Shown: positions 23,357 to 64,000 of the stretch, piece by piece
Layout: each line of letters begins with the position of its first letter
Position numbering within the stretch: position 1 is the stretch's first letter
Assembly (NCBI GenBank): GCA_027262695.1
Contig: GCA_027262695.1_4722.1
Length of the DNA stretch: 64,000 nt
Source: a phage
Direction: 5' to 3' (one strand)
Translations under genes and position numbers: made by a program
Notes under the pieces: generated by a model
What the model was told of the DNA's origin: nothing
What the model saw: the letters and a program-made list of their open reading frames with translations, nothing else
Databases searched by the model: none

Positions 23357-24248
23357 CTGTTTGTCGACTATATCTTCATCTTCATTGCGAAGAGACTCTC
23401 GTTTGGGTTTGTGTTTAACAAAGCCTACTCTACTCAACATCGCGTCTTTCGATAGTCTGTGAGCACACATCTTAACGAATATTCGTGGGTTCCTACAGAC
23501 AGGTGAATATTCTTGTTGAGATGCTTCGCTGCGGATTATTCCCGTCCTACCTCTTTTACCATACCCAGTTCATTACGCTGGCCCTCATCGATGTCACCAT
23601 GATGAGTTGGTGTGTAGTCCGATTACAGAAACTTCCCGTCAATTAGAGAGTTTTAACTATGCTCCTGTTACCAGGAACCAGATCCCGACGGTATCAATAA
23701 ATCAACGTAAGTTATTGATTTAATTGAAAAAACTGAAATCTGCATTATCTTAATCTTCGATATGGTTCGCTAAGCCATATCCGCACATACGTGCAGCTTA
23801 CGTCTTTCACGTAAGAAGAGACTATATCTTTCACCCTCAGCTTTACCTGTTAGGGGCTCCCATTTCGGCGGTCGTTTGACCGGTGGTTTCCCACGCCGCT
23901 TGGCCCTAACGCCCGTGAGCGATAGTCGTTGAGCACATCTCCGTTCTGGAGACTTCGCTGCGGATTCCTCAATCCTTACTGCTTTTACCGTACCTGAATG
24001 ATTAGTTCAGCCCCACGCTCTGTTCCCAGGCATGGTTGGTGAGCAAGGCTCTAAGTAGGTTCCCGCTATTAGAGAGTTCCTCGTGACAGCATTACTGTGT
24101 CACTGGGCCTAATGACCCTTTCAAGATCATCACGCTTAACCCGATGGTGTTATCCTGCGGGTCGCGTTTAACCTTGGTGATTTCAAGACATTGGTTACTG
24201 CTACGGTCAAGTGATGGATTTCGAACAAAGCCACACACAATCCCATCG
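23357..24248 (-). ncRNA. Two tandem ORF-less group I intron cores inside the beta-prime N-terminal gene (boundaries approximate)
   Basis: Minus-strand elements for core 1: P AATAGCGGGAA (24060-24070), Q AATCCGCAGC (23957-23966), R GCTCAACGACTATC (23921-23934), S AAGATATAGTC (23820-23830). Core 2: P AATTGACGGGAAG (23632-23644), Q AATCCGCAGC (23528-23537), R GCTCACAGACTATC (23451-23464), S AAGATATAGTC (23366-23376). Stops in all frames; no ORF over 70 aa. Confidence 0.65.
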
Positions 24249-25357
24249 AACGGTGTATCAGCAATAAGCTCGTCATGCAGCTCGCTCATCATCGGATGAT
24301 AATTGCGGACATGCTCTGCAACGAACGCACGGGCTGCTCTTGGTGAATAACCACGATGGAATAACTTGGATTGGATATGTTCTTTATTGGTTAGTGTAAA
24401 TGGTGCGTACGGAAAATGCAGATGATAATAACGATGGTTTGCTGTTATCGAACTGATGACCGTACGTGTGGTGAATGGATGTAATGTACCTAATATGTTC
24501 TTACGTGTGATCCCTTTCTTCTTACCAATGAACTCATCGAAAATCGCCGAGTGATACTGCAACAGCTTCAATTGCACTTTCGCCATCCAGTTTTCTTTCT
24601 TTCTGGCGCTTAGTGGCGTGGTTGGATGATAGATGCTATTCAATGTTCCGATGGCGTCTATCGCACCTTCCATTTTGCTGTCAGCGTAACGTCCTGTTGG
24701 CGTGTTCTCGATCACGAACATCATGGCTGCAGGAAAGCTGATGTACTGACTGAAGAATTTATCCCGATGAATACGGATGAATTCGCGTAGCGTATCAACC
24801 TTCTCCATGTTCTTCGGTCCACGTAGTGTGGGTCCTTTATACAAGATCTCCATGATACGATCGAAGTTCTGTATAAAGCTATTTATACCGCGTCGTATTC
24901 CGAATACATCGAATTGCTGTTCCAGATAGTTCTTAAGTTCGATCGGTCGTTTTACGTTCGGACGGTAACTGGCATCAATGAGCCACGTCATCGTTTCAAA
25001 GCTTTTGATATTCAACTCGCTTGCCAGCACGAGATGGACCAACGGGTTAATGAACGCATCGATACCTTCCGGTACGCGCGCCCAGACCGTTGAACGAATC
25101 TCTTGTTCTGCTGGATAAGTGACAACCGTTTTACAGTTCGGGCACACCGTCCCTAATAACTCACCGCGATTATAGAAACCACAACCGCATTGCGGGGTGA
25201 TATCCAAGGTATCGCTCGAGTAAACACGGGTGATGAAACTGTTTAATTTCTTCTTCTCTTCCACGACCTTCGTATCATAATCGTTCAACAATATCGGCGT
25301 AAAAGGAAGTTCTGCGAGCTGTCTATCGAAACTGACGATATCGAGCATGATGGCCAT
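24249..25357 (-). CDS. RNAP beta-prime N-terminal subunit, upstream exon (3' boundary approximate)
   Basis: Zinc ribbon 'CGCGFYNRGELLGTVCPNC' matches the spacing of E. coli beta-prime 'CLCGKYKRLKHRGVICEKC'; 'HPMMSELHDELIAD' resembles 'HPLVCAAYNAD'. The ORF reads on into the intron ('TPFDGIVCG...') to a stop at 24092. Confidence 0.6.
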
Positions 25358-25399
25358 GGGGTATCTCCTGCAAATGAAAAAGAACGTTAGGACGTATAA

Positions 25400-25424
25400 G
25401 GGAGGGAGGTTGCCCTCCCTCCCG
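25400..25424 (-). terminator. Hairpin GGGAGGGAGG / CCTCCCTCCC
   Basis: 10 bp GC-rich stem directly downstream of the 632 aa gene, followed on the minus strand by a T-rich tract. Confidence 0.55.
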
Positions 25425-25449
25425 TCAGTTTACATCGAACGTTCTTCCA

Positions 25450-27348
25450 TTAGAACAGGTTGAATGCCCCGCCCATGCCGTTACCGCCCACATTCGGACG
25501 ATCGTTACGTGCGTAGATGTTGCCGCTGATGGTACCCAGACCGCGAGCACGTGCTGCCATGTTACCACGAACAGCGGTGCCTGCCAGATGCTGGATGTTC
25601 TCAGGACGGATGGTGAAGCCTGCTTCAGCAGCCGCTTCAATCAGTGCCTGCAACGCCAGCGGATCGAAATCATAACGCATCGCCCAGCCGGTTTGTTCCC
25701 AGCTACCAGACAGAACGCGGTCGATGATTTCGTGACGAGCAACCACACGCTGAGACATCGACATATCGGTACGGTCGAAGCTGTCTTCCCAAGCTTCTAC
25801 GGTATCCGGGTTGGTGATGTTCATCATGTACAGATCGTCCATATCACGAATATCGTGACGGTTACCGTCCTGGTGGTTGTAGTGACCCAGCGGGATACGG
25901 TTACCGGTCGCGTAGACCAGCGGTGAGCCGTACGGATATTTCTTGCTGAAGCAACCCAGGGTAACATCATCGAACGCACGGAAGAGGGCTTTGTAGCCTT
26001 CGGAGTATTCCTGTACGTCCCCTTCAACATTACCCGAGAAGATCTTCTCAGCCGCCGGGATCATACGCAGCAGCCAGCTGTACTCGCCTTCTTCTGGTAC
26101 ATCGATAGAGATCAGCAGAGACGGATACAGAACCTGTTGCAGGAACTTGTAAATCTGCTCGTTGGTTTGCGTAGACAGATCCAGCGGTGCAGTCACTTCA
26201 GGATCCAGCACCATCGCCAGAGCACCTGGGTTATGCGGACCAATACCACGAGCCGCGTTGCTGATTAAAGACTGTGCCCATGCCATGCCGCTGTTCAGCG
26301 TAGCGATGGTACCAATCAGACCCAGCACGAAGCTGTTCGGCGTGAACGCATCCAGTTCCAGCGGATACATGCTGGTCATTACGTAGCGCGGCTGGTACTG
26401 AACAGTTGGCGGTACCGGATAACCGTTAACCAGAACAGGACCTTGCTGGAAGGTCGGGTTCTGCGGGCTGTAGGTCAGATCGATATAACCGGTGGATGCA
26501 ACCAGACGCTGCTGGCTATCGTAATCGCCCATCGCTTGACGGATGCGGTTAGAGATAGTTACAGTAATGTCGGAGCGTACCGGGTTACCCGCGATATCAC
26601 TGTCCTGCATGCCGCTGGTGTTATACTGAACGCTGCTGATCGGCTGGTCGCTTGCCATCATACCCAGGTTGAACTGAGGCAGGCCCAGTCTGTCAGCAAA
26701 ACGCATTTCGGTTGCCGTCTGGATCGCGTTATCTGCTGCAGACAGCAGGGTGGTTGCCAGATGCGCAGATTCAGCAGTGATTTCATTGGTCACAACAGCC
26801 AGACCAGCGATACGTACCGTACCGTTGGCTTTACCACCGATAGCCGCATACATCGCTGCCATGACTTCGTTGATGAACGTGCCGTTCAGGTTATCCACCC
26901 AAGTACATGGTACCAGGATGTTACCGTGAGGACCACGTTCTTCACGACGTGGCAGCGGAGCCAGGCCAGCAACCAGCGGAAGGACGTAACCGAAGAAGTG
27001 GTTATGATCGCCCACTTTTACACCGCTCATCACAACCAGGGTCGGATACGGTACGCTGTACTGGTTCGGGTCAACCGCAACAAAGATGAAGTCGTCTTTG
27101 AACTGGGTATCTTCCAGATATTTCTCCATCAGACGACGGAGATTCAGTACCTGCTCGGAGCCGGTATTACGGCTGATACGACGGCTCAGTGTACGGTTGA
27201 TCGTACGCATCGTATGAGTTACTTTAGGACGGTCAGCAAAATCTGCAGCGGTTTCGACCGCTTCGTTAGCGCGCTGCGCCGCGCGGGTTTCAGCTACGCG
27301 GATGTCTACGTTATCGTTACCGTTATTGTTACGTACGTCTAAGCCCAT
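25450..27348 (-). CDS. chmA: candidate chimallin (phage nucleus shell protein) / abundant 632 aa protein
   Basis: The 632 aa size matches known chimallins; the gene lies immediately upstream of the beta-prime N-terminal gene (the gp54-gp55 arrangement of phiKZ as I recall it) and within about 8 kb of PhuZ. It has an AAGAGGA RBS and the conserved 11-mer upstream. No alignment was performed. Confidence 0.45.
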   Translation of the reverse strand: MGLDVRNNNGNDNVDIRVAETRAAQRANEAVETAADFADRPKVTHTMRTINRTLSRRISRNTGSEQVLNLRRLMEKYLEDTQFKDDFIFVAVDPNQYSVPYPTLVVMSGVKVGDHNHFFGYVLPLVAGLAPLPRREERGPHGNILVPCTWVDNLNGTFINEVMAAMYAAIGGKANGTVRIAGLAVVTNEITAESAHLATTLLSAADNAIQTATEMRFADRLGLPQFNLGMMASDQPISSVQYNTSGMQDSDIAGNPVRSDITVTISNRIRQAMGDYDSQQRLVASTGYIDLTYSPQNPTFQQGPVLVNGYPVPPTVQYQPRYVMTSMYPLELDAFTPNSFVLGLIGTIATLNSGMAWAQSLISNAARGIGPHNPGALAMVLDPEVTAPLDLSTQTNEQIYKFLQQVLYPSLLISIDVPEEGEYSWLLRMIPAAEKIFSGNVEGDVQEYSEGYKALFRAFDDVTLGCFSKKYPYGSPLVYATGNRIPLGHYNHQDGNRHDIRDMDDLYMMNITNPDTVEAWEDSFDRTDMSMSQRVVARHEIIDRVLSGSWEQTGWAMRYDFDPLALQALIEAAAEAGFTIRPENIQHLAGTAVRGNMAARARGLGTISGNIYARNDRPNVGGNGMGGAFNLF

Positions 27349-27416
27349 TTGGGAATCCTCTTTTTCTTAACTTTTAAATGACGTCATTGAATCAGCTTTT
27401 TCTCGCTCATTCACCT

Positions 27417-27427
27417 AGGTAATATAA
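27417..27427 (-). promoter_or_regulatory. Candidate phage promoter element TTATATTACCT (minus-strand sense)
   Basis: About 70 nt upstream of the 632 aa gene start at 27348, inside a 238 bp AT-rich divergent intergenic region; identical 11-mer at 16270-16280. Confidence 0.35.
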
Positions 27428-27586
27428 CCCTGAAATTTTTTTCAATATTGGTGTAACCGTATTGAACGATATAAACCCCCAGGTGAATGCTGCCGAGAAG
27501 CAACATTCTATCTACATATAATCAGGATATGTCTGTAAACTTTTACTTCTCGTCATATCCGTTTACTATCTTCTTACGGAGTTCGT

Positions 27587-28681
27587 ATGTTTCGTGTTTT
27601 AAATAACCTCCCGCGAACATCATCGGGTGTGCAACCCATCCCTCAGAAAGACTACCTAATACGCGAAGTGCAAAGAAACCTACAGACAATCCAGAACCAC
27701 TACCAAGGGTTTACCTTCGCGGTTCAGAGCGATCACATCCTTGCATTGCTGCTCGCACAGCTCCCTATGAGATACGACATCTCAGTACAAACTTACTACG
27801 ACATGATCGCTGACCTTACACCAGAATTGGGGAATCGCGTTAAACTAACAACAGCGCGATACGCGGGTAAGTTATTTAACGGTGCGTTCTATCCGGGATT
27901 GCATGAAGCGATCATTGCAACCAGTGAAAGCCGTCTTATATCGCGTGACGTTCTCGATAACTGGCGTAACTGGTCTCCGGTCAGAATCGTGACACACCCC
28001 TACGCGAATCTTCGCTATATCCCTCTACATCGAAAACCGGTTGAAGAAGGACGGGGTTTTGCGGTCATCATGATCGATGTACCTTTATTAGCGTTGCAGT
28101 ATCGCATGTGGTCATTAGTCATGGGTCACAACGTCGATGGTAAATGGGTGGTTAAAGAACCTGTTACAAGTTTCATTGCCAGTTTTCCTTTGGTCAATGC
28201 ATTATACACACACAACGACGTGGCTATCCGCAATCGTTGCTTATGGGTACCTCCGGCTAAGAATCCGCTCAAGTCACCGATTTACGTCAACGATCTGGAT
28301 AACGTTTTCAGTCAAGTGGTGCTGACCGTCCAACATCAGCTATTACGAAGAAAACGTAGTTACACCGATATGTTGAAACAGATACCGAGTTTATACGAGG
28401 ATCAATTTCAAGCAACACGCATGGGTTACACCATCGATCTTCGACAAACACGGTGGGCAAGGGATCTCGGATGTTTGTCTTTATGGCAACAGCTTGTTAC
28501 CTTGCAAAACGTTTCAGAAAGCGTCGGCTTCAGTAGTCAAACCGACAACGACTTATATCGTGCAGCCGATCGAAGTCTAAAAGAAGGGAATTGGGAATCG
28601 TCTCCTTTACCCGGTGATCTACGACGCGAGGTTATCGCACAGGTTGCTGATCTTTTAAAAATACTTCCCGCTGGTGCATAA
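27587..28681 (+). CDS. hypothetical protein (364 aa)
   Basis: Plus-strand ORF with an ACGGAG RBS, divergent from the 632 aa gene; bidirectional hairpin downstream. Confidence 0.5.
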   Translation: MFRVLNNLPRTSSGVQPIPQKDYLIREVQRNLQTIQNHYQGFTFAVQSDHILALLLAQLPMRYDISVQTYYDMIADLTPELGNRVKLTTARYAGKLFNGAFYPGLHEAIIATSESRLISRDVLDNWRNWSPVRIVTHPYANLRYIPLHRKPVEEGRGFAVIMIDVPLLALQYRMWSLVMGHNVDGKWVVKEPVTSFIASFPLVNALYTHNDVAIRNRCLWVPPAKNPLKSPIYVNDLDNVFSQVVLTVQHQLLRRKRSYTDMLKQIPSLYEDQFQATRMGYTIDLRQTRWARDLGCLSLWQQLVTLQNVSESVGFSSQTDNDLYRAADRSLKEGNWESSPLPGDLRREVIAQVADLLKILPAGA

Positions 28682-28683
28682 TC

Positions 28684-28716
28684 CCCTCCTCCTTCCCTGA
28701 TGGGTTGGAGGAGGGT
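28684..28716. terminator. Bidirectional terminator hairpin (CCCTCCTCC / GGAGGAGGG)
   Basis: Between the convergent gene ends at 28681 (+) and 28721 (-). Confidence 0.55.
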
Positions 28717-28720
28717 TATG

Positions 28721-30874
28721 TTACTCTGCGGTTTCTTTTTTCGGTTGGTAGCTTGCAGCGATATCTTGGGCTAACAGTGTGTTGTTCTTATTCGAAATGA
28801 AAATACCGTAACTTTCCATTAATGCGTAATACGAGCGAACGAGTGTAGAAATCAATCGACGAATATCCATACCTTGGATGAAAATATCGGGAAGCCCAGA
28901 GGCTTCGATCACCGGTAATGGTATCGTTAAATTGCTTATCGTTTTCTTATCGTTACGTACAATCCAATCACGGAAACGTTGTTGTAACCCTTTATCCTCC
29001 CAGGAATCAATCCAATCATTAAGAAGCGTTTTGTTCTTCGTTGCCAATGGTACACGAACCCCAACATAAGGCGGTTCAGGGCAATGGCCGTACGATTGCG
29101 CAAACACCTCTTCCCACATGTCGTACGACTGCTTGGTAACCGCAACATGTGGTTTTACTTTAACGCGTGTTAAGAAATCAGGATCGCCGCGTTTCATCGA
29201 TTCCACGATTTCGTTTTCTAACGCGATGATATCATCAAGTACTAATCTGATACTGATCTTCTCGTTACGTAACAGTTTATCCATGATACCGCACATCATG
29301 CGCTCAACACGTTGTACGATCATTTTTGGTGCTGATGCGTCACGCATAACGGGACCTTTCAATTCCAGTTTCGGCGGATTGATTGGAACCCCTTCACGCA
29401 TGGTCATGTAACCGTAATAGTTTTTACCCATTGAAGTCAACGACAGAATCAAGAACATATACTCGTTCTTCATTTCCATCACGTACATATGCTCTTTCGC
29501 GACGCCGATATTACCCGAACACATTGCCATCAGATGAACCGTAATCTGCGTAACCAGGTAGATAAGCGTATTCGCTAAGCGCGTTGAAATCGGATTGATC
29601 TCCATGTTGCCAAACCGCCACTGAACCCACTCCTGACAGGTAAATACCGTTGAGTCGGTATCGGACAACACACCCACTTCACGGATGGCTGACGGAAACG
29701 CATAAACACCCGCGGGTTGGTTCTCGGTGCGCCAGAACGCCATAATCAGGTCAGCGTAACTCTGGATACGTTGTAACATTAATTTTGTCGTGGCAGCGGT
29801 AAGACGATAACCCAGTTCGTTGCCTTTTTCTAACGCAACGTAAATCGCTTCACCATTTAAGAACTCGGTACACTGTGCTGTAATCCAGGCAACCGTGTTA
29901 TTATCCATGGAGGCGATAATGGCTTTCGCCTCTTCCATCGTTTCAACAGGTTCGGTGGCCAATTCACATAACGAATCAAGGAAACCACAAACAAACTCAG
30001 GATTCAGTTCACGCAACGAATACAAGTTGTTACTATACATGTAACAGGCGCGTTCCAACGGCGTTAAACCGTTAATCAACTCCTGAATAACCAGTTCTTT
30101 TTCCGGGTCGAAAATATAGCGATGCAGGCATTTTGATACATTAGCCCAAACCTCTTCCGGTGTAGGGTAATGTAGCTGGTATTTTACCATCACCTGCTCA
30201 ATGGCTTTACGATCGCTGTTACGGACAATGCTTACGATATTTTCAATCGCGATATCACAATCGTAATAATGAAAATTACCCGCCAGGAACCGCTCGTTAT
30301 TCGCATTCGCCGAACCGGAAGCGCATCGGCATGTCGTGGTTAAACTCGGATGTGCGATCGGGTTATAAAACGGATTGAATTTAGATGCCTGTGTTCCCGA
30401 CAAACTGTTGTTGTCTAACTTGGTGTTAGTCTGTCGTTTATCATGCAGTTCCGCTTCGTCTTTACGTCCATGTGCTTGTGCAATAGACATTTGTTTCTTT
30501 TGTTTCTTACGCAACTTACCGTTTTCAACCGCGAAGTCGCTTAACACACTGGAACGTGTTTCACGTGGATAACAGTTCGCCCATACCGGGGTAATGATTA
30601 AATTATTTTCTTTGATATCGTTGATATACTGACTGAACTTAATAACTTCTTTTTCTCGGTTTCCTTCGGTACGTTGTGTTAAAACAAGACAGTCAGGATC
30701 AACCATCCCGTGTGCACCACCTGGCTTGATAGTATCAAGTACGAACCGTAATGCTTCTTGTTGAGAAATACCACGCATGCGCATTAAGAACAGGGTATAA
30801 TCCTGCACCGCTTCTTTGGTCATATCCAACGTACGACCGTATCCGTTTTCATCGTAAAAGAACGGATTTTCCAT
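28721..30874 (-). CDS. putative divergent family-B-like DNA polymerase (catalytic region)
   Basis: 'GVLSDTDSTVF' resembles pol B motif C (YGDTDS), followed about 70 aa later by 'SMGKNYYGY' (KxY-like). Motif A and B assignments ('YSNNLYSL', 'KLMLQRIQSYA') are weak; the motif A-like segment lacks the catalytic Asp. Confidence 0.3.
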   Translation of the reverse strand: MENPFFYDENGYGRTLDMTKEAVQDYTLFLMRMRGISQQEALRFVLDTIKPGGAHGMVDPDCLVLTQRTEGNREKEVIKFSQYINDIKENNLIITPVWANCYPRETRSSVLSDFAVENGKLRKKQKKQMSIAQAHGRKDEAELHDKRQTNTKLDNNSLSGTQASKFNPFYNPIAHPSLTTTCRCASGSANANNERFLAGNFHYYDCDIAIENIVSIVRNSDRKAIEQVMVKYQLHYPTPEEVWANVSKCLHRYIFDPEKELVIQELINGLTPLERACYMYSNNLYSLRELNPEFVCGFLDSLCELATEPVETMEEAKAIIASMDNNTVAWITAQCTEFLNGEAIYVALEKGNELGYRLTAATTKLMLQRIQSYADLIMAFWRTENQPAGVYAFPSAIREVGVLSDTDSTVFTCQEWVQWRFGNMEINPISTRLANTLIYLVTQITVHLMAMCSGNIGVAKEHMYVMEMKNEYMFLILSLTSMGKNYYGYMTMREGVPINPPKLELKGPVMRDASAPKMIVQRVERMMCGIMDKLLRNEKISIRLVLDDIIALENEIVESMKRGDPDFLTRVKVKPHVAVTKQSYDMWEEVFAQSYGHCPEPPYVGVRVPLATKNKTLLNDWIDSWEDKGLQQRFRDWIVRNDKKTISNLTIPLPVIEASGLPDIFIQGMDIRRLISTLVRSYYALMESYGIFISNKNNTLLAQDIAASYQPKKETAE

Positions 30875-31185
30875 AAACCCTCCAAAAGTCGTATAGCCTA
30901 TCTACATCATCTCGTATATCTGTTAAAAAAGAAAGACGGCATAAAAAAGAACCGATCCAGCCGAAGCCAGATCGGTTGAAAGGATAATTAATAACAGGGA
31001 AATGAAAGTGTGACTGAAAGATATCGATGATGTTCGTGAAATAAGATCTTCTCGTCTACAGTGATGCCAGATCAGAGGGAGGTTGTAAACGAGAGACGGT
31101 TCACTAAAGGAGTAACAAACGCGAACCTATCTTATTTCACCGATGGCGCTAACCACTCAAAATATATAGTACCATATGTAAAAGT

Positions 31186-31599
31186 TTACTGATTAATCAA
31201 GTCGTTAGCAACGATCTTGGTGTAACCTGCTTGATTAAGAATCTGATTAATTTTCGTCACATCGGTTGCATCATCAATAACGATGCTGGGTTTATAAATC
31301 AACGTCTTGGTAACAACGATCGTACTCTCCTTAATCCAGGGAATCCCTAGGATCACATACTCGCCATCAGCGGTGATGACCTCAACGTAGTTATATTTCG
31401 TTGGATCATTCGGAACGCTAGACGGAAGCCGGGAATAGATCTGCTGATGGATAGCGTCAACATCACGGCCGTTACGTACAGCGGTACGGTAGTTGTATAC
31501 CGCACTAATTTCCACTCCGTTGAAGTTAACCCCAAGTTCTGAGGCGTACACATCAAAACTCACAACAGAGCCAATCTTTTCTAAATCAGAAGCTGGCAT
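31186..31599 (-). CDS. hypothetical protein (137 aa)
   Basis: ORF on the dominant strand. Confidence 0.45.
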   Translation of the reverse strand: MPASDLEKIGSVVSFDVYASELGVNFNGVEISAVYNYRTAVRNGRDVDAIHQQIYSRLPSSVPNDPTKYNYVEVITADGEYVILGIPWIKESTIVVTKTLIYKPSIVIDDATDVTKINQILNQAGYTKIVANDLINQ

Positions 31600-31610
31600 A
31601 ATAGCATCCT

Positions 31611-32009
31611 TTATTCAAAAATGTATTCATATCCGAACGTTGTCGCTGACCAAACTCGGATAGATGATAATGTTCCGCCACGATAAAACGTTTTTGTAAA
31701 CTCCATATCCTGGACAACACGATAGTAAACACGTGCGATGATACGTACGACAAGATTTCGTGATAACGATCTCTCTTCGCAGTATTCGTCGATAAAGTCA
31801 TCGTCGATATCCGATAAGACAACATCTGCGATTTCTTGCAGGAGATTCCTCATCAGCATCTGCTTTCCTTCGATACCCCATCCAGACAAACAGTAATCGT
31901 CTTCTGCCTGACTGTAGATGTCATAGACCGCCTGTTCAAGCAGTTGCTCAAGATAGTGATCATCGCGTTTTATAACGTGGCGACGGCGCTCAGAGGCGTA
32001 TTTTTCCAT
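31611..32009 (-). CDS. hypothetical protein (132 aa)
   Basis: ORF on the dominant strand. Confidence 0.45.
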   Translation of the reverse strand: MEKYASERRRHVIKRDDHYLEQLLEQAVYDIYSQAEDDYCLSGWGIEGKQMLMRNLLQEIADVVLSDIDDDFIDEYCEERSLSRNLVVRIIARVYYRVVQDMEFTKTFYRGGTLSSIRVWSATTFGYEYIFE

Positions 32010-32452
32010 CCTGTGTTTCTCTTGTTAGGCGTATGTATTAACGACGCCACCGTCTTTTCTGGATCATCCCATAATGCGCGACGAAAACTGGACACCACCA
32101 TAACGGTAGGATAGATCTGTACGACCTCCCAACCGTAACGATGCGCATTCGTCGTGCGCCCAACATTGAACAAACACAATTGATTTAAGAAACAGAGCTG
32201 CATCTTCGTAAACAACAGCGTGTCTTCACGTTTCACGTAACCGAGGATGTAGGCGTTCTCGAACGCTTCACGTGCTAAGACAGGACGGTTAAGATAACGT
32301 AGCGACAACACCAACAACGCAGTGATACGCAACGGATCTTCGGGTCCTTTTAAATCATTCAGCTCGTTCTGCAACCAATCCGGAATCGCCACCGTTAGGC
32401 GATAGGTGTCTGTTCCACGGTCAACCACATTTAATGTTGAAAAAGGCAACAT
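31970..32452 (-). CDS. hypothetical protein (160 aa)
   Basis: ORF on the dominant strand; short overlaps with neighbours. Confidence 0.45.
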   Translation of the reverse strand: MLPFSTLNVVDRGTDTYRLTVAIPDWLQNELNDLKGPEDPLRITALLVLSLRYLNRPVLAREAFENAYILGYVKREDTLLFTKMQLCFLNQLCLFNVGRTTNAHRYGWEVVQIYPTVMVVSSFRRALWDDPEKTVASLIHTPNKRNTGWKNTPLSAVATL

Positions 32453-32933
32453 ACCCGTGAATTCCTTCTAACTCGAGGTCGTTCTCGTCGGTTTTCGGTA
32501 AAAGTCCGTTAGCTGCCAGCATCCTTGTCATCGCGCCATCGAAGCACGGGAAGATAAGGTTAATAGTTTCATTAATCGCATCAACGTAGCTATACACCGC
32601 TTCGAAGTAATCGCCGTCATGATCGATACTCACCAGATCTTGACATAGGTCTTCGGCAATCGTTTCATATACCGGCGGATACCACGAATGAAACGGTCGC
32701 TGCATACGTAACGACCAATACTCATACGTCGTATACTGAAGCACGTCATAGGCTGATACGTTAATGCAGTCAAAGAAAGCATACGTGTCCATGTGTTGGT
32801 ACAACATCGCCAACACGGTTTCCAAACACACAGCTATCCGCACGCCATCATCTTTCCCGTTAAGGAAATTCGGTTTCTGCCGGTAACGCACGAATGCCGA
32901 TAGCCTTGATTGTACTATTCCACCACCAACCAT
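32421..32933 (-). CDS. hypothetical protein (about 170 aa)
   Basis: Start trimmed to the internal Met at 32931-32933 to avoid a 130 nt overlap with the upstream gene. Confidence 0.4.
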   Translation of the reverse strand: MVGGGIVQSRLSAFVRYRQKPNFLNGKDDGVRIAVCLETVLAMLYQHMDTYAFFDCINVSAYDVLQYTTYEYWSLRMQRPFHSWYPPVYETIAEDLCQDLVSIDHDGDYFEAVYSYVDAINETINLIFPCFDGAMTRMLAANGLLPKTDENDLELEGIHGYVAFFNIKCG

Positions 32934-33472
32934 AATGTCATACTCGTATCTAACGTGAAATTGAAATGCCACCAATCTTCCACGCGTGGAATCCAGGTGC
33001 GGAGGATCTGATGAACCTCGCTTCGCATCACGGACAACCGACAACGGAAATCAAACTTCTCATCACGGCCGTAGTCTTCATGCAGGAAAACTTCATCCAA
33101 AACAAACTCAAGTTGTGTATCGACATCACGACCCGAGATATTTCGTTTGTACAGATAAAGTTCAATCGTGTCATAAAGCAACGTATGGATATCGTAATTG
33201 CCATTCGGTGAGAAATAAGGTAAGCGCTCATCGAACATCAAAAACAGATATTCACTGTAGTTTAAGAACGGGATGATGTACCGACGTCCTGTCTGTGGTG
33301 CGCGAATATGTATCGAAACCTGACCTGGACGCGGAATCGCCGACGGTTTAGCATCGTCTCTCTGAAATTGCTCTAAAGATCGCAACAAAGGTGGCCGCAT
33401 TGTAACTCTCCAACGCCCAATTGTAAGGCCCTTCCAACATATGTTCCCATACGTGAATAAACTCACTACCAA
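32915..33472 (-). CDS. hypothetical protein (185 aa)
   Basis: ORF on the dominant strand. Confidence 0.45.
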   Translation of the reverse strand: MVVSLFTYGNICWKGLTIGRWRVTMRPPLLRSLEQFQRDDAKPSAIPRPGQVSIHIRAPQTGRRYIIPFLNYSEYLFLMFDERLPYFSPNGNYDIHTLLYDTIELYLYKRNISGRDVDTQLEFVLDEVFLHEDYGRDEKFDFRCRLSVMRSEVHQILRTWIPRVEDWWHFNFTLDTSMTLWLVVE

Positions 33473-33977
33473 AAACCGGTTCTAACGTCATCGTAAGATG
33501 CGTAAGTTCAGAAGCTGCAGCGTGATACGCGTCCACGTGTCTTTCCATCGAAGGTTCGTCTTCGTTGAAAATCCGCTCGGTATCACCAGCGCATTCAATA
33601 AGTTCGGTAATGAGATCGATCCAGGTTTCGTGGCATGTCAGCGTTTCCTGTTCTCGACTTTGTATGCCGATGTCGGCGTGTACGCTGGACTCGAACCGGT
33701 CGAAAAGGACCCGAAGAACGTGCACCTTGTCGATGTATTTCACCGTTATCCAGGAAAGCGGTTGCCATCGACTCAGCATCCATCCGGTGCTCGGGAACCC
33801 CAAACTCATATAGTACGGGTTGCACGGGGCCAAGGACGGAACGGCGTTGTTTGTAGCGTTCCTTAACGGCGAGGCCTTGTTTAACATAAATGGGTTCATT
33901 GGCGAGTTCTGCGGCTTTTCGTTTTGCGTGGGCCAATCGAAGTTCTTCCAATTGTCCAAGCCATTCAAATTGTTCAT
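33348..33977 (-). CDS. hypothetical protein (start uncertain)
   Basis: Overlaps the 3' end of the next ORF by about 380 nt in another frame; its N-terminal part looks non-coding-like, so the true start is probably internal. Confidence 0.35.
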   Translation of the reverse strand: MNNLNGLDNWKNFDWPTQNEKPQNSPMNPFMLNKASPLRNATNNAVPSLAPCNPYYMSLGFPSTGWMLSRWQPLSWITVKYIDKVHVLRVLFDRFESSVHADIGIQSREQETLTCHETWIDLITELIECAGDTERIFNEDEPSMERHVDAYHAAASELTHLTMTLEPVFGSEFIHVWEHMLEGPYNWALESYNAATFVAIFRAISERRC

Positions 33978-34572
33978 CTGTTAGCTCCTGGGGACGTTCA
34001 ACAACCACGCCCGATGGGCAGACATTGATCGTAATGTTAATTGATGGCATCGCCATCACGCGAGGATGACTGTTGCGCATCCGAACAACGTGTTGACCTG
34101 CATTCTTACGATCGACATGAAATTCTGTTTCCTTAAAGTCAAAGGCTTGTACAGGAACAGGTTTCCTTTTACGTTTCGGAACGCGGCCAAGATCGACGAT
34201 GAAAATGTAATCACAAACACGCTCGACCCCATAAACACGATTTTCAGACCAACTCTTACCGAATACATTCGGATGGTAATACGACAAATACTCGGTTACC
34301 ATTCCCTGGACAAGATCGAAGTCTTCTCGAAATTCAGGTTGGTACCAAATCGGACCGAGGATTTCTGCAAACGCTTCATGTCGATAGCGGCAATCATGCC
34401 GTGTCCAGGGCATTCTCTGATTAAGATCGAAATCCACCAACAATTCGGTTAATTGCAGTTTTGCCTTCGGAGAAAGCTGGCGTTGATGATGCAAACTCAG
34501 GCAATCGATAAGCGGTAACGAAACCCACGACGCTAACGTATACAAATCGATCCTGGCTAATCTCTTGGTCAT
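33595..34572 (-). CDS. hypothetical protein (3' end uncertain)
   Basis: The Arg-rich C-terminal tail 'RPVRVQRTRRHRHTKSRTG' looks like out-of-frame read-through; possible frameshift or true overlap with the downstream ORF. Confidence 0.4.
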   Translation of the reverse strand: MTKRLARIDLYTLASWVSLPLIDCLSLHHQRQLSPKAKLQLTELLVDFDLNQRMPWTRHDCRYRHEAFAEILGPIWYQPEFREDFDLVQGMVTEYLSYYHPNVFGKSWSENRVYGVERVCDYIFIVDLGRVPKRKRKPVPVQAFDFKETEFHVDRKNAGQHVVRMRNSHPRVMAMPSINITINVCPSGVVVERPQELTDEQFEWLGQLEELRLAHAKRKAAELANEPIYVKQGLAVKERYKQRRSVLGPVQPVLYEFGVPEHRMDAESMATAFLDNGEIHRQGARSSGPFRPVRVQRTRRHRHTKSRTGNADMPRNLDRSHYRTY

Positions 34573-34663
34573 ACTCTTTTCCTAAGTCCCCATTGTTTAT
34601 ACACACGATATCTGGGAATAGTTAAAATATACGGCGTAAAACGAAACAGGAGAGTTTCTCGCG

Positions 34664-34984
34664 CTATTTTCTTCCTCTTTTGATACAACCGATACCCCTT
34701 TCATTTAAAGCCCCCCAGGCGCGGTTTATTTCATCTTCTGTTGCTCGCGTATCTCGCGGAACCACCATCACGCAGTCTTCTATCGGCCAATGCGTCGGTC
34801 GAGGATCAGCAAATAAATCGTCCCACTCAAACGTCCATTTCCTCTTCGAACGGTTATAGTAAAGCGTGAGGTACGTACGCGTATACGCTGGGTAGCCTTG
34901 TAACACGGCGAAGTCTTTTCGATCCTGATGTGCTTGATTCCATTCGTTAAAACGGTTTCTTATTCTTGTCCACCATTTTCCCAT
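34664..34984 (-). CDS. hypothetical protein (106 aa)
   Basis: ORF on the dominant strand. Confidence 0.45.
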   Translation of the reverse strand: MGKWWTRIRNRFNEWNQAHQDRKDFAVLQGYPAYTRTYLTLYYNRSKRKWTFEWDDLFADPRPTHWPIEDCVMVVPRDTRATEDEINRAWGALNERGIGCIKRGRK

Positions 34985-35041
34985 AAACTCTCCTACACGG
35001 CATAAAAGCCTGCCCCGAAGGACAGGCTCATCATGATACTT

Positions 35042-35239
35042 TTAACCTTCCATCTTCAATGAGGGATGGTTGACGATATGTGCATGTTTGGTTGGGTCGT
35101 ACGACTGATAAGGGAAATAGCCATGCCATTGACGGCCTTGACATTTCGTACACAGGAACTGACCATCACGGCGTTGATGCTCGTAGGCCAGTTCAGTGCT
35201 ATCAACGTGACCGCAACGTTCGCAGATAAACAGCGACAT
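35042..35239 (-). CDS. small zinc-ribbon protein (65 aa)
   Basis: Two CxxC pairs: 'CERCGH ... CTKCQG'. Confidence 0.45.
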   Translation of the reverse strand: MSLFICERCGHVDSTELAYEHQRRDGQFLCTKCQGRQWHGYFPYQSYDPTKHAHIVNHPSLKMEG

Positions 35240-35255
35240 AGCGCATCTCCATGGA

Positions 35256-36236
35256 TTAGAAAAGCAAGAAACCGCTGTTCTTCGCTTCCGCTACGGTTTC
35301 ATCACCCACCTTCGGTGCTTGTTGACGTGCGTTACGATGTTCAACAAAACGTTTTGCTTCGTCCGCGATTTGTTTGATAATACCCCCTAAACGATCGGTG
35401 CTTAATACGAACGATGTCGCTTCACGAATCGGGCTGCTTTCCGGCACAAAACCATCACAGCTATAAATAGCATTAACACCCATGACTTTCGTCGCGTCTT
35501 TCGGATACAACGTACAGAAAGCAATCGGGCTATCATGCTCTTTGGTCCACTCGTATCCCATGAACGTGTTCAATTCGGTGATGGTCGGTTCCAAACCGGT
35601 AACACGAGGATGGTTTAAGAAGTTCTCCAGATCAGCGCTATCCAAGCGACGGTTCTCACCAGAGAACAACACACAGAGTTGGCTGATAACGATCTGGACA
35701 TCCAGGTTAACGTCTTGCTCTGATTTTCCGTTTTCGCCATTCATGTGGTAGCTGACAATCACAGGACGTTTCAACCCTTCTGCGGCTGCCATCAGTCCTT
35801 TGAACGTACGGTCAGCATTGATGGTCTGACGTTCATCGTCAAAGGAGGCAACGATACAGCAAACAACACGCTCACCGCGTTCCAGCAGGTTAGCGACCAG
35901 CGCAGGGCCTGCAACGGAACCCGAACCACCGCTTAAGCTGAAGACGACGATGTTGAATTTACCTGGCGTATGCTTATTAAGAATACCTGGGATTTGTGAG
36001 CAGATCAGTTCAGCATTCTCATCGCGTTTCTTACCGGAACCATCAAGCTCGCGGCCTGCTGCATCTTTAAAGATGTAAATGTGATCATCGTCCAGTGCGC
36101 TATCACGTAGGTTAGCACGGCTGGTATCAACATACGTCATGCTGTGTAATCCTTTCGCGACTTCGCCTTCAAATGCTGAGCCGATTTCGCCACCACAACC
36201 ACCAACCGCCCAAATATGTACTTGGTTCTCTTGCAT
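35256..36236 (-). CDS. phuZ: PhuZ-like phage tubulin
   Basis: Tubulin-type GTP-binding loops 'AVGGCGGEIG' and 'FSLSGGSGSVAGP' (cf. PhuZ 'YSLGGGSGSVLGP'); 326 aa matches PhuZ size; AGGAG RBS. Confidence 0.75.
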   Translation of the reverse strand: MQENQVHIWAVGGCGGEIGSAFEGEVAKGLHSMTYVDTSRANLRDSALDDDHIYIFKDAAGRELDGSGKKRDENAELICSQIPGILNKHTPGKFNIVVFSLSGGSGSVAGPALVANLLERGERVVCCIVASFDDERQTINADRTFKGLMAAAEGLKRPVIVSYHMNGENGKSEQDVNLDVQIVISQLCVLFSGENRRLDSADLENFLNHPRVTGLEPTITELNTFMGYEWTKEHDSPIAFCTLYPKDATKVMGVNAIYSCDGFVPESSPIREATSFVLSTDRLGGIIKQIADEAKRFVEHRNARQQAPKVGDETVAEAKNSGFLLF

Positions 36237-61550: not shown

Positions 61551-62696
61551 TTATTTGGCTTCGTTAAAATAAATATCAACGGCACGTTCCGTTGCGTAGA
61601 GAAGACCCAGATTCACGGTCCCTACCACTTCCGGTGAACCGATGATACGGTTAGCGATACTGGTGCCACTGAAGATAGCATCAAGGGTGTGCCCGTCTTC
61701 GGTTTTGTTCACACCATGACCCACGGAAGAGACAACGGATTTTGCCTGTGCTGCGAAGGTACCTTTATCCCCCATTCCCGCACCCAGGTCGTAACGCATG
61801 AAAATACGGATGGCGATCTGGTTCTCGCCTAACGGATTACCGTCTATTCTCACGTTACTGTTGTTGATGCGTCCCGTTGTTGCTTCGTTGAGTTTCAGTT
61901 CCTTAACGCGTTTAGCTCGCGCTTTATCCGCTTCACCCACAAGTGCTGCCATGGTTTCACTCATGTCTTCAATCTGGGCACGATACAACACATCGATCTG
62001 TACGACTTCACCATGCACGTCAGCCCGTGGGTTATACTGACTCATACGGCGTAACGCTTCAACCGCTTCCTGACTTTCATCGCTCAGATCGGTCGCAATC
62101 GGTTCTTCCAGTGTTGCCAGGATCGTCCGAGGTTCAACATGATCGCCGATTTTCACCAAACCACGAATGTTGAGATGAGCGTCAACAATGAGCGTACGAC
62201 TCTTAATCGATGGTGTTACGAGACGATCAGCGAGATTGTCGAAGATATACGAACTGTCCTCGTGCGTTTCTGGAATATCCAAAATACCAACCAAAGACAG
62301 AACGCCTGCGCGCCAAACCACCTGACCTGGGTTCCACCAATCCCGTTTGAAATAAAGACGATGGAATACCACTACATCCTGATCCTTAACGCGATCACCA
62401 ACTTTATAATCGGTAATGAGATCGTGAGGATAATACTTACCTGGTCCTTTCCCGATTATCGTACCGAGTTGGAAAACCTCTTCCCCTAATTCTGGATCGT
62501 CGTATTGTATCGTAAGCGCTGTTTTGGTGACCTTCTTCACAACACCATCGCCTTGAGCAGCTGCTGCGAAGAGTTTACCAACACGATGCGCGATAACAGT
62601 CTCACCACCTGTACGCCATGGTTGTACGTCGTAACCTTCAGCAGCTATCATGCGGTTGTGCTGTATACCTATAAATACGAGACGCTTTGGCGAAAT
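61551..62696 (-). CDS. RNAP beta subunit fragment, downstream exon (5' boundary approximate)
   Basis: The frame opened upstream of the annotated Met reads 'RLVFIGIQHNRMIAAEGYDVQPW' (cf. beta '[25 protein letters not shown]'); also 'HEDSSYIF' (cf. NFEDSI) and 'GAGMGDKGTFAAQA' (cf. [13 protein letters not shown]). Confidence 0.55.
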   Translation of the reverse strand: MSPKRLVFIGIQHNRMIAAEGYDVQPWRTGGETVIAHRVGKLFAAAAQGDGVVKKVTKTALTIQYDDPELGEEVFQLGTIIGKGPGKYYPHDLITDYKVGDRVKDQDVVVFHRLYFKRDWWNPGQVVWRAGVLSLVGILDIPETHEDSSYIFDNLADRLVTPSIKSRTLIVDAHLNIRGLVKIGDHVEPRTILATLEEPIATDLSDESQEAVEALRRMSQYNPRADVHGEVVQIDVLYRAQIEDMSETMAALVGEADKARAKRVKELKLNEATTGRINNSNVRIDGNPLGENQIAIRIFMRYDLGAGMGDKGTFAAQAKSVVSSVGHGVNKTEDGHTLDAIFSGTSIANRIIGSPEVVGTVNLGLLYATERAVDIYFNEAK

Positions 62697-63208
62697 CCAG
62701 CAAAATACAATTACTGTGCGTCTAGATTGTTCAGATAAGGTCGTTAATCTTATCCCGGTGGTGATGATAGGTGCATCACCAACCCGCTTGCGCTCTCACG
62801 CAAGAGCAGACTATATCACATCTCGTTTCAAACGGTGCTTCTTCAGCGCCTCAACGAGAGTTCACTTCTTCCCAGCGCATCCAGCGCCATTCTCTTATCC
62901 AAGGAGAATGCCTCACTCGAGGGGTACAGGGGGATGAATCCCTTAGTCGTTGAACCGTCACCCTAGAACGTTTCACAACGATCCTTAGGCGATTGGCTGC
63001 GGATTGTCCTTAAGCTATTATCTGTTTTATAACCATACCGTCTTTCTTTTCAGAATCCGTTTTGGTCGATAACAGCGATGGATGTCTTCGCAATTCAGTG
63101 AATCTCATCTACATGTCGCCATATAGACGGACCCTGCTATTAAAAGCGTTAATCATCTCTGTCGGCAGCAGGTACTGCAAGTGCCGATGTACTCATTATT
63201 GACGAGCT
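62697..63208 (-). ncRNA. ORF-less group I intron in the RNAP beta gene (boundaries approximate)
   Basis: Minus-strand P AATAGCAGGGT (63131-63141), Q AATCCGCAGC (62996-63005), R GGTTCAACGACTAAGG (62941-62956), S GATATAGTC (62809-62817), then three P9-like hairpins (CTTGCG/CGCAAG, GGTGATG/CATCACC, GATAAG/CTTATC). It separates two in-frame beta segments. Confidence 0.6.
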
Positions 63209-64000
63209 ACCATCCGTTTTCTCGTCGTAAGGTTTTGTTTCACCGTATACAGACACGATGTTTGCGTTAGGTGCAAGATAAGCAGAGATACCTACATCGC
63301 CACTGTCCTTCGTACCTTCAGATACCACACCGATGTCTGACTTGTCGTATTCACGATCGCGTGCGCGTCGAAGCGATGTTTTCGAACGACCCCCGATACC
63401 GGTCATCGTTGCTTCTTCACCCTGCTTGATATCCAACATCGGGTTGGTTTCATCGATGACAATAGAAGCACTGTCGTCAAGGATTTGGTTCCAAACGCTC
63501 ACCGGACTGATTGAGATCTTCTGTCGGTTGCCTTGGCTGCTGTTCTCGTTTTGACGAATAGCACCAACCAGATCCTTATACACCAACTCAGCGAACTTAT
63601 CGTACGTTTTGAAGCGCTGGTAGTTCACATCGTTCGTGTTCGGTGCCCAATCATCCAGAAGCAGTTCAACAGCACGTAATAACAACATGGCGAAATCAGT
63701 CGGTTCACCCATGTTCTGCAATAATGTACGACTTACCGGGTCGACGAAAAGACGCTCCATGAGTTCAAGTTCGCGAAGATGACGAACCTTAAGACCTGCA
63801 CCATCGACAACGTTAAAATAGATATCCCGATTGTCAAAAGCGCCGCGAGCGTAACCGATGTAATTACGGTATTCGTTAAATCCACCCAACAACAATGTCG
63901 TCATTCGATCATCTTTACTGAAGATCAAACTTTCATCGTCGAAGCTTACCGCGAATTCATCCGATGCTAAGCCCATACGAGAACCACGAACTACCGTACG
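63209..64000 (-). CDS. RNAP beta subunit fragment, upstream exon (5'-partial; continues beyond the window)
   Basis: 'GIGGRSKTSLRRARDREYDKSDIGVVSEGTKDSGDVGISAYLAPNANIVSVYGETKPYDEKTDG' aligns with E. coli beta '[64 protein letters not shown]'. The frame is open to nt 64000; after 'KTDG' it runs into the intron and stops at 63149. Confidence 0.6.

Follow-up and report, generated by a model that had tools for sequence, protein, structure and literature searches.

A family B DNA polymerase whose catalytic centre is divided between two genes is very probably represented in the phage DNA examined here (contig GCA_027262695.1_4722.1; "the window" means its whole 64,000-nt length). The gene in question is an uninterrupted open reading frame (ORF) on the minus strand, beginning with an ATG at position 30874; residue numbers refer to its 717-residue product. 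This product would be the polymerase chain of a two-chain replicative enzyme, an obligate heterodimer with a separately encoded exonuclease chain and with a composite active site. An earlier note, made from the sequence alone, had suggested a split or highly divergent polymerase. It is both, with the exonuclease and N-terminal half encoded by a separate gene.

The product matches Pfam family PF20286 'divDNApol' (Divergent Family B DNA polymerase) from profile position 3 to 704 of 705 (E = 4.4e-202; 673.5 bits against a curated cutoff of 25.7), and also phrog_2927, "DNA polymerase" (E = 4e-205). The window is collinear with the E. coli jumbo phage Goslar, at 88% nucleotide identity over the stretch compared (window 24000-36000, 12 kb), and the protein shares 97.2% of its residues with Goslar gp244 (RefSeq "DNA polymerase"). 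Homologues of the polymerase chain occur in 308 phage records, nearly all of them from phiKZ-type jumbo phages, and include phiKZ gp50 and EL gp021. The window protein is an orthologue of the PF20286 members (phiKZ gp50, EL gp021, 201phi2-1 gp083, and Goslar gp244) and shows no substantial difference from them: all have invariant motifs B, C, and KxY, a long helical insert before the motif C hairpin, and no fused exonuclease. Its lineage-specific substitutions at near-invariant positions (F201, N283, and N485) do not include the catalytic residues.

An AlphaFold model made with 91 homologues as input (predicted local distance difference test, pLDDT, 92.1; predicted template modelling score, pTM, 0.88) has the palm, fingers, and thumb of family B polymerases. 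When it was compared with the PDB by Foldseek, the best 50 matches were all RB69 or T4 gp43 chains, most at a probability near 1.0. Palm-domain similarity, which the earlier note proposed to seek with profile and structure searches, is therefore found by both approaches (PF20286, HMMER, and Foldseek). A single-sequence search of the PDB with the window protein returned nothing relevant, family B polymerases being reached only by profile searches.

Conservation was counted in an alignment of the 91 polymerase-chain homologues. Nineteen columns are invariant: R122, K126, K152, N156, G160, T179, G199, R398, D405, T406, D407, S408, K469, E471, K484, Y486, E494, K506, and G507. Two strings had drawn attention originally, SDTDS and, about 70 residues later, GKNYYGY. 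Both are present, the second beginning 75 residues past the end of the first, a spacing similar to that between D621/D623 and K706 in RB69 gp43. The order of motif C and KxY that was read into them holds: the invariant D405, D407, K484, and Y486 align with RB69 D621, D623, K706, and Y708. Given the strength of the PF20286 match and the invariance of D405, T406, D407, S408, K484, and Y486, the motif match is far beyond chance. By hhalign, motif C falls on RB69 G620-D621-T622-D623-S624. HMMER places profile positions 479-538 on RB69 705-764 (the KKRY region), with K484-N-Y486 on K706-R-Y708, and the alignment past KxY runs to RB69 764-767, so that both KxY and thumb are represented.

Upstream of these elements, motif B departs from the canonical Kx3NSxYG by a change of Tyr to Ser throughout the family; K152, N156, and G160 are invariant, S157 is found in 85/91 sequences and S159 in 89/91. 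The helical insert lies between the post-motif-B helix and the motif C hairpin; a long helical insert before the second palm strand of these polymerases was described by Iyer 2021 (PMC7824862). Altogether, the polymerase chain covers RB69 gp43 residues 438-569 and 616-767, the HMMER alignment beginning at profile position 79 (RB69 438). The 78 residues before that point contain neither a motif A strand nor an invariant acidic residue, and may form a docking surface for the exonuclease chain. The family N-terminus itself is set, to within a few residues, at M-x-N-P-F5 in the 91 sequences.

The polymerase chain has no motif A. No DxxSLYPS-type element was found upstream of motif B, and none of the acidic residues before motif B is invariant in the 91 sequences, where full conservation of an acidic residue is confined to positions 194, 405, 407, 471, and 494. 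In the AlphaFold model, no beta strand precedes helix 18-34.

Several segments were considered for this role and rejected. The earlier note had singled out YSNNLYSL as a motif A-like segment without the catalytic Asp. It does lack an Asp, but it is not motif A: it stands 120 residues downstream of motif B, which breaks the universal A-B-C order, and lies in insert helices H272-280 and H284-290. At this place the family consensus reads YTGDLYHL, position 283 being occupied by Asp in 84 sequences and by Asn in 7 (the window phage/Goslar lineage and five others). VWANCYP (residues 97-103) is placed by HMMER on the RB69 SPNG hairpin 457-463, downstream of motif A. D59, within "VDPD", is Asp in just 56/91. 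Kazlauskas and Venclovas, who first recognised these polymerases in 2011, marked EL D229 and D398 as catalytic (PMC3201878). EL D398 corresponds to window D407. EL D229 corresponds to D221, a position inside the insert and after motif B, occupied by Asp in 51, Pro in 24, and Asn in 12 of the 91 sequences.

The catalytic Asp that the earlier note took to be lacking is retained, as D501 of the exonuclease chain. In Goslar this chain is gp068 (RefSeq "DNA polymerase", with a DNA_pol_B_exo1 domain), encoded on the opposite strand about 95 kb from gp244. The suggestion to look for a separate exonuclease-domain gene thus proved sound. Searching the 64-kb window with gp068 by tblastn returned no match, so the window has no homologue of the partner gene. 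Nor does the window ORF contain a fused N-terminal exonuclease (Exo I, II, or III): as was originally noticed, exonuclease motifs are absent from it, and it aligns to RB69 gp43 only from 438 onward. All of the catalytic residues of that module are on the chain represented by Goslar gp068 and its homologue P0113.

In an alignment of 69 exonuclease chains, the following residues are invariant wherever sequence is present: D155 and E157 of Exo I; N254 and D258 of Exo II; Y389 and D393 of Exo III; and a motif A, D499-L-D501-x4-Y506-P507...N514-I-S-x-E-T. When this family was compared with RB69 gp43, hhalign produced one continuous alignment over RB69 105-433 (probability 97.3%, E = 1.7e-11). It ends with "hVaDLDVssYPn...NISkeTT" on RB69 "vmsfDLTSLYPSIIRQVNISPETI", and thereby places motif A of the exonuclease chain on RB69 D411-LTSLYPSIIRQVNISPET, with D501 at D411, Y506 at the steric-gate residue Y416, and P507 at P417. 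Sixteen further family B polymerases were listed with the RB69 alignment in support of this assignment. Judged from the alignment to RB69, the exonuclease chain represents a true family B N-terminal and exonuclease module rather than a nuclease of the generic DnaQ-like kind. Motif A is thus an element of the complete two-chain enzyme but not of the window polypeptide by itself. When the exonuclease chain was folded alone, the motif A segment 502-515 had pLDDT below 50, as would be expected for a piece that folds only against a partner.

The deposited Goslar sequence obscures this motif. The RefSeq gp068 protein has 499 residues and ends "...FVAD*" at D499, as if the split fell exactly after a catalytic Asp. 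This end is an artefact, because a group I intron matching RF00028 (44.7 bits, E = 1.5e-9), with the HNH/NUMOD endonuclease gp069 encoded inside it, interrupts the gene there. An unannotated second exon of 84 residues (LDISSSYPNGQ...RTIE*) lies about 1.7 kb downstream. The homologue P0113 (583 residues) is 99% identical to gp068 over 499 residues, and its last 84 residues are identical to the Goslar exon 2 translation. The RefSeq truncation therefore hides motif A from readers of the deposited protein. About 12 of the 69 aligned chains, from metagenomic homologues, break off at D499 or D501 or within a few residues beyond; motif A may therefore be a place where introns or homing endonucleases have inserted repeatedly in these phages (checked in Goslar only). 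Separately, in Pseudomonas phages of the phiKZ and Phabio types, the tblastn match to the exonuclease chain is broken in two, and the two parts together extend over some 180 nt more than the protein would require; a small insertion, or perhaps an intervening sequence, may account for the excess.

Laid on RB69 gp43, the two chains tile the enzyme: the exonuclease chain covers 105-433, and the polymerase chain the two blocks from 438 onward. The break is therefore within the palm: it corresponds to RB69 434-437 and separates motif A from the fingers. Extra unaligned sequence flanks it on both sides, a tail of 69-132 residues (counted from D501) on the exonuclease chain and the 78 N-terminal residues of the polymerase chain; these extra sequences probably form the chain interface. 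The two genes also occur together. The exonuclease chain was found in 296 phage records and the polymerase chain in 308, and the counts are identical in 8 of the 9 genera common to both top-10 lists (for example Pseudomonas 81/81, Erwinia 62/62, and Salmonella 24/24). Bacillus is the genus that differs, with 9 records in the set of 308 and 6 in the set of 296.

These observations place the split of the polymerase between motif A and the fingers, and suggest a model in which the active site is most likely composite. In the obligate heterodimer, the C-terminal segment of the exonuclease chain would complete the palm of the polymerase chain, so that the two-metal active site and the pocket for the incoming deoxynucleoside triphosphate would be built from both chains. 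The exonuclease chain would contribute proofreading; the first palm strand, with its metal-binding Asp; and the sugar-discriminating, steric-gate Tyr. The polymerase chain would contribute the triphosphate-binding fingers; the second metal-binding hairpin; the KxY contacts to the primer terminus; and the thumb. Proofreading would be coupled to synthesis as in single-chain RB69 gp43. Because the polymerase chain lacks the motif A strand and helix, which are present on the exonuclease chain, neither protein should work alone. An SH3-fold protein, encoded next to the polymerase gene, is possibly a third subunit, and this protein and the helical insert are candidates for processivity or assembly functions. 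We infer, then, a physical association of the chains and a role for the SH3-fold protein.

Certain points weigh against this model. The partner gene was studied only in Goslar, the relative with 88% nucleotide identity to the window, and in metagenomic homologues. The motif A stretch alone gave no significant match in HMMER, and its assignment is supported by the collinear hhalign alignment. For the other chain, hhalign of the family profile against the single RB69 sequence is moderate taken alone (E = 3.7e-4, probability 36%). Contact of D501 with D405 and D407 of the polymerase chain is predicted from homology. The literature searched held no biochemistry on any family member, although no search was aimed at biochemistry. 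Finally, the 2011 analysis reported both metal-binding aspartates as conserved in the three polymerases known then, and on the polymerase chain (PMC3201878).

This last observation is the starting point for the best surviving alternative: a self-sufficient polymerase chain with its own motif A residue (EL D229, or the Asp of YSNNLYSL/YTGDLYHL), served by the exonuclease as a loosely associated proofreader. The predominance of Asp at position 283, within an LYxL-like motif, could be cited in its favor as well. Across the larger alignment, however, the EL D229 position is Asp in little more than half of the sequences, and position 283 is Asn in the window phage itself. Both positions come after motif B, in insert helices rather than at the end of a palm strand, and the exonuclease chain has a far better, fully conserved motif A, collinear with RB69 404-433. 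We consider a self-sufficient chain improbable.

A little less probable still is that the enzyme acts also, or instead, as a primase-polymerase that starts chains de novo, which would explain why no primase is recognisable in these phages. Iyer 2021 (PMC7824862) raised this idea for group 1 jumbo phages, which lack DnaG-type and archaeo-eukaryotic (AEP) primases and keep RNase H1 (Goslar gp190 is an RNase H homologue), but offered the phage multisubunit RNA polymerase as a primer source too. The sequence and the model are silent on priming, and the closest structural relatives are all primer-dependent replicases.

The least credible alternative is that the chains are joined into a single-chain polymerase, by a split intein as in Nanoarchaeum equitans PolB or by trans-splicing of the mRNAs: intein-joined split family B polymerases do exist in archaea (PMC4104785) and mobile elements do target the gene, as the intron at motif A of the Goslar exonuclease gene attests, but no H-N-[C/S/T] C-intein junction occurs within the first 80 residues of any of the 91 polymerase chains, the short tail after motif A of the exonuclease chain has a consensus without a conserved N-intein Cys or Ser start (by eye), each gene is bounded by start and stop codons of its own, a terminator and a separate ribosome-binding site precede the polymerase gene, and the Goslar genes are far apart on opposite strands.

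The two-chain enzyme is most readily compared with the gp43 polymerases of RB69 and T4. There, one polypeptide does what two genes encode here; the phage enzyme of the window type adds the helical insert of about 200 residues and replaces the motif B Tyr. Unlike in RB69 and T4, neither a sliding clamp nor a clamp loader was recognised in these phages (PMC3201878), and both published analyses report that a clamp was not found (PMC3201878, PMC7824862). Over the fingers and motif B, no other single HMMER match is as good as that to the poxvirus polymerase (vaccinia E9 / mpox F8; residues 629-696 with profile positions 117-187, E = 6e-5), and Iyer 2021 found polymerases of nucleocytoplasmic large DNA viruses to be closest by profile-profile comparison (PMC7824862). 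The poxvirus enzyme, however, has its exonuclease fused into one chain and works with another processivity factor (A20/D4).

Split family B polymerases are also known from archaea: in the Methanobacteriales (PolB1/PolB2; Kelman 1999) and in Nanoarchaeum equitans (Choi 2006), the core is likewise divided over two genes and reassembled. The Nanoarchaeum halves are ligated by a split intein, whereas no intein signature was found in the phage chains. The break in the Methanobacteriales enzyme presumably lies between motifs B and C, and that in the phage enzyme lies between A and B. Since the archaeal and phage lineages are unrelated, the splits are independent.

The gene itself is ordinary, a conserved replicase of a well-studied phage family whose Goslar orthologue is already annotated. 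The Pfam family, the family B identity, the separate exonuclease chain (2011, 2021), the insert, and the SH3 neighbor are all published or curated. Specifically, the placing of exonuclease and polymerase on two polypeptides was reported in PMC3201878; the missing fused exonuclease, the long helical insert, and the SH3 neighbor in PMC7824862. A statement that places motif A or the steric gate on the exonuclease chain was not found in the accessible literature, which is not proof that none has been published; the text of the 2021 survey does not state that motif A is on that chain. The break point inside the palm is probably a refinement of the published split rather than an established discovery.

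Table 1. Positions of the polymerase gene, its motifs and neighbors in the window, and of the partner gene in Goslar
Feature	Position	Strand	Remarks
Chimallin gene	25450-27348		PF25677, phrog_4795
Conserved phrog_3938 gene	27587-28681
Polymerase-chain gene (717 aa), two-chain family B DNA polymerase (probable)	28721..30874	-	Orthologue of Goslar gp244, phiKZ gp50, EL gp021
C-terminal palm block: K469-N-E471, KxY K484-N-Y486, E494, K506-G507	29354..29470	-	K469, E471, K484, Y486, E494, K506, G507 invariant
GKNYYGY (aa 483-489)	29408-29428	-	Contains KxY
Motif C, S404-D405-T406-D407-S408 (SDTDS, aa 404-408), metal-binding beta hairpin	29651..29665	-	Strands E401-404, E409-411 in model; D405, T406, D407, S408 invariant 91/91
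All-helical family-specific insert, ~200 aa (aa 200-395)	29690..30277	-	AlphaFold helices H206 to H395; contains YSNNLYSL and D221
YSNNLYSL (aa 280-287)	30014-30037	-	No Asp
Motif B, K152-LDN-N156-S157-L-S159-G160	30395..30421	-	RB69 K560, N564, S565, Y567, G568
Fingers basic residues R122, K126	30497..30511	-	Invariant 91/91; RB69 R482, K486 (HMMER alignment)
N-terminal 78 aa, two helices and a beta hairpin	30641..30874	-	No RB69 gp43 counterpart in any comparison run; AlphaFold secondary structure
Shine-Dalgarno GGAGGG	30878..30883	-	Spacer to ATG 3 nt; read from sequence
Intrinsic-terminator-like hairpin, 12-bp stem then T run	30950..30977	-	Between SH3DP gene and polymerase gene
SH3DP (SH3-fold protein) gene, 137 aa	31186..31599	-	PF20287, E = 4.3e-36; directly upstream of polymerase gene
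gp068 region, Goslar NC_048170	record 79690-83200 (= extract L003 29690-33200)		Intron at L003 32405-32923

The genome context (Table 1) is that of the family. Gene order around the polymerase gene is shared with Goslar and EL, and the PF20286 members have in common an SH3DP gene upstream together with a nearby chimallin gene and a gene matching Goslar gp247 (annotated RNA polymerase beta subunit). In EL, a 140-residue gene (EL gp020), matched by position, occupies the equivalent site directly upstream of the polymerase gene. At the position of the window's terminator-like hairpin, Goslar has an annotated terminator as well. The T-rich stretch directly after the window hairpin ends in TATG (30940-30943) and may resemble the short promoter motif described for the phiKZ non-virion RNA polymerase. 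The neighbors fit a nucleus-forming phage, and the source would be a Goslar-like member of the Chimalliviridae. A green fluorescent protein fusion to Erwinia phage RAY gp220 ("DNA polymerase") sits inside the phage nucleus; the gp220 label could denote either chain. The conserved SH3-protein neighbor of these polymerases was described by Iyer 2021 (PMC7824862), and the protein is a candidate accessory subunit.

Other features of these genomes were noted in passing. ARAGORN found no tRNA genes across the 64-kb window. Window positions 62787-63153 on the minus strand contain a group I intron, flanked by the minus-strand ORFs 63149-63976 and 61551-62651; it scores 51 bits with Rfam RF00028 (gathering score 50, E = 5e-10). 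It contains no endonuclease ORF, and neither flanking ORF has a Pfam match. By position, the two ORFs match Goslar gp207 ('RNA polymerase beta subunit'), whose coding sequence is continuous in Goslar, so that the intron seems to be present at this site in the window phage and absent from Goslar. Goslar gp039 (extract L002 39828-41624, minus strand; 598 residues) is annotated merely as 'polymerase' and has no Pfam match at E < 0.1.

More tentatively, and with doubt slightly outweighing confidence, the catalytic centre in all nucleus-forming jumbo phages may be shared by two gene products, one providing the motif A Asp and the steric-gate Tyr and the other motifs B and C. If so, the view of 2011 that the polymerase chain holds both catalytic aspartates would be corrected. 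Biochemistry, structural work, or inhibitor screening of the phiKZ or Goslar "DNA polymerase" would need the exonuclease chain to be co-expressed, and perhaps the SH3 protein too. Moreover, proteins of the phiKZ gp50 type would be inactive alone, and replication fidelity and catalysis would be physically inseparable in these phages.

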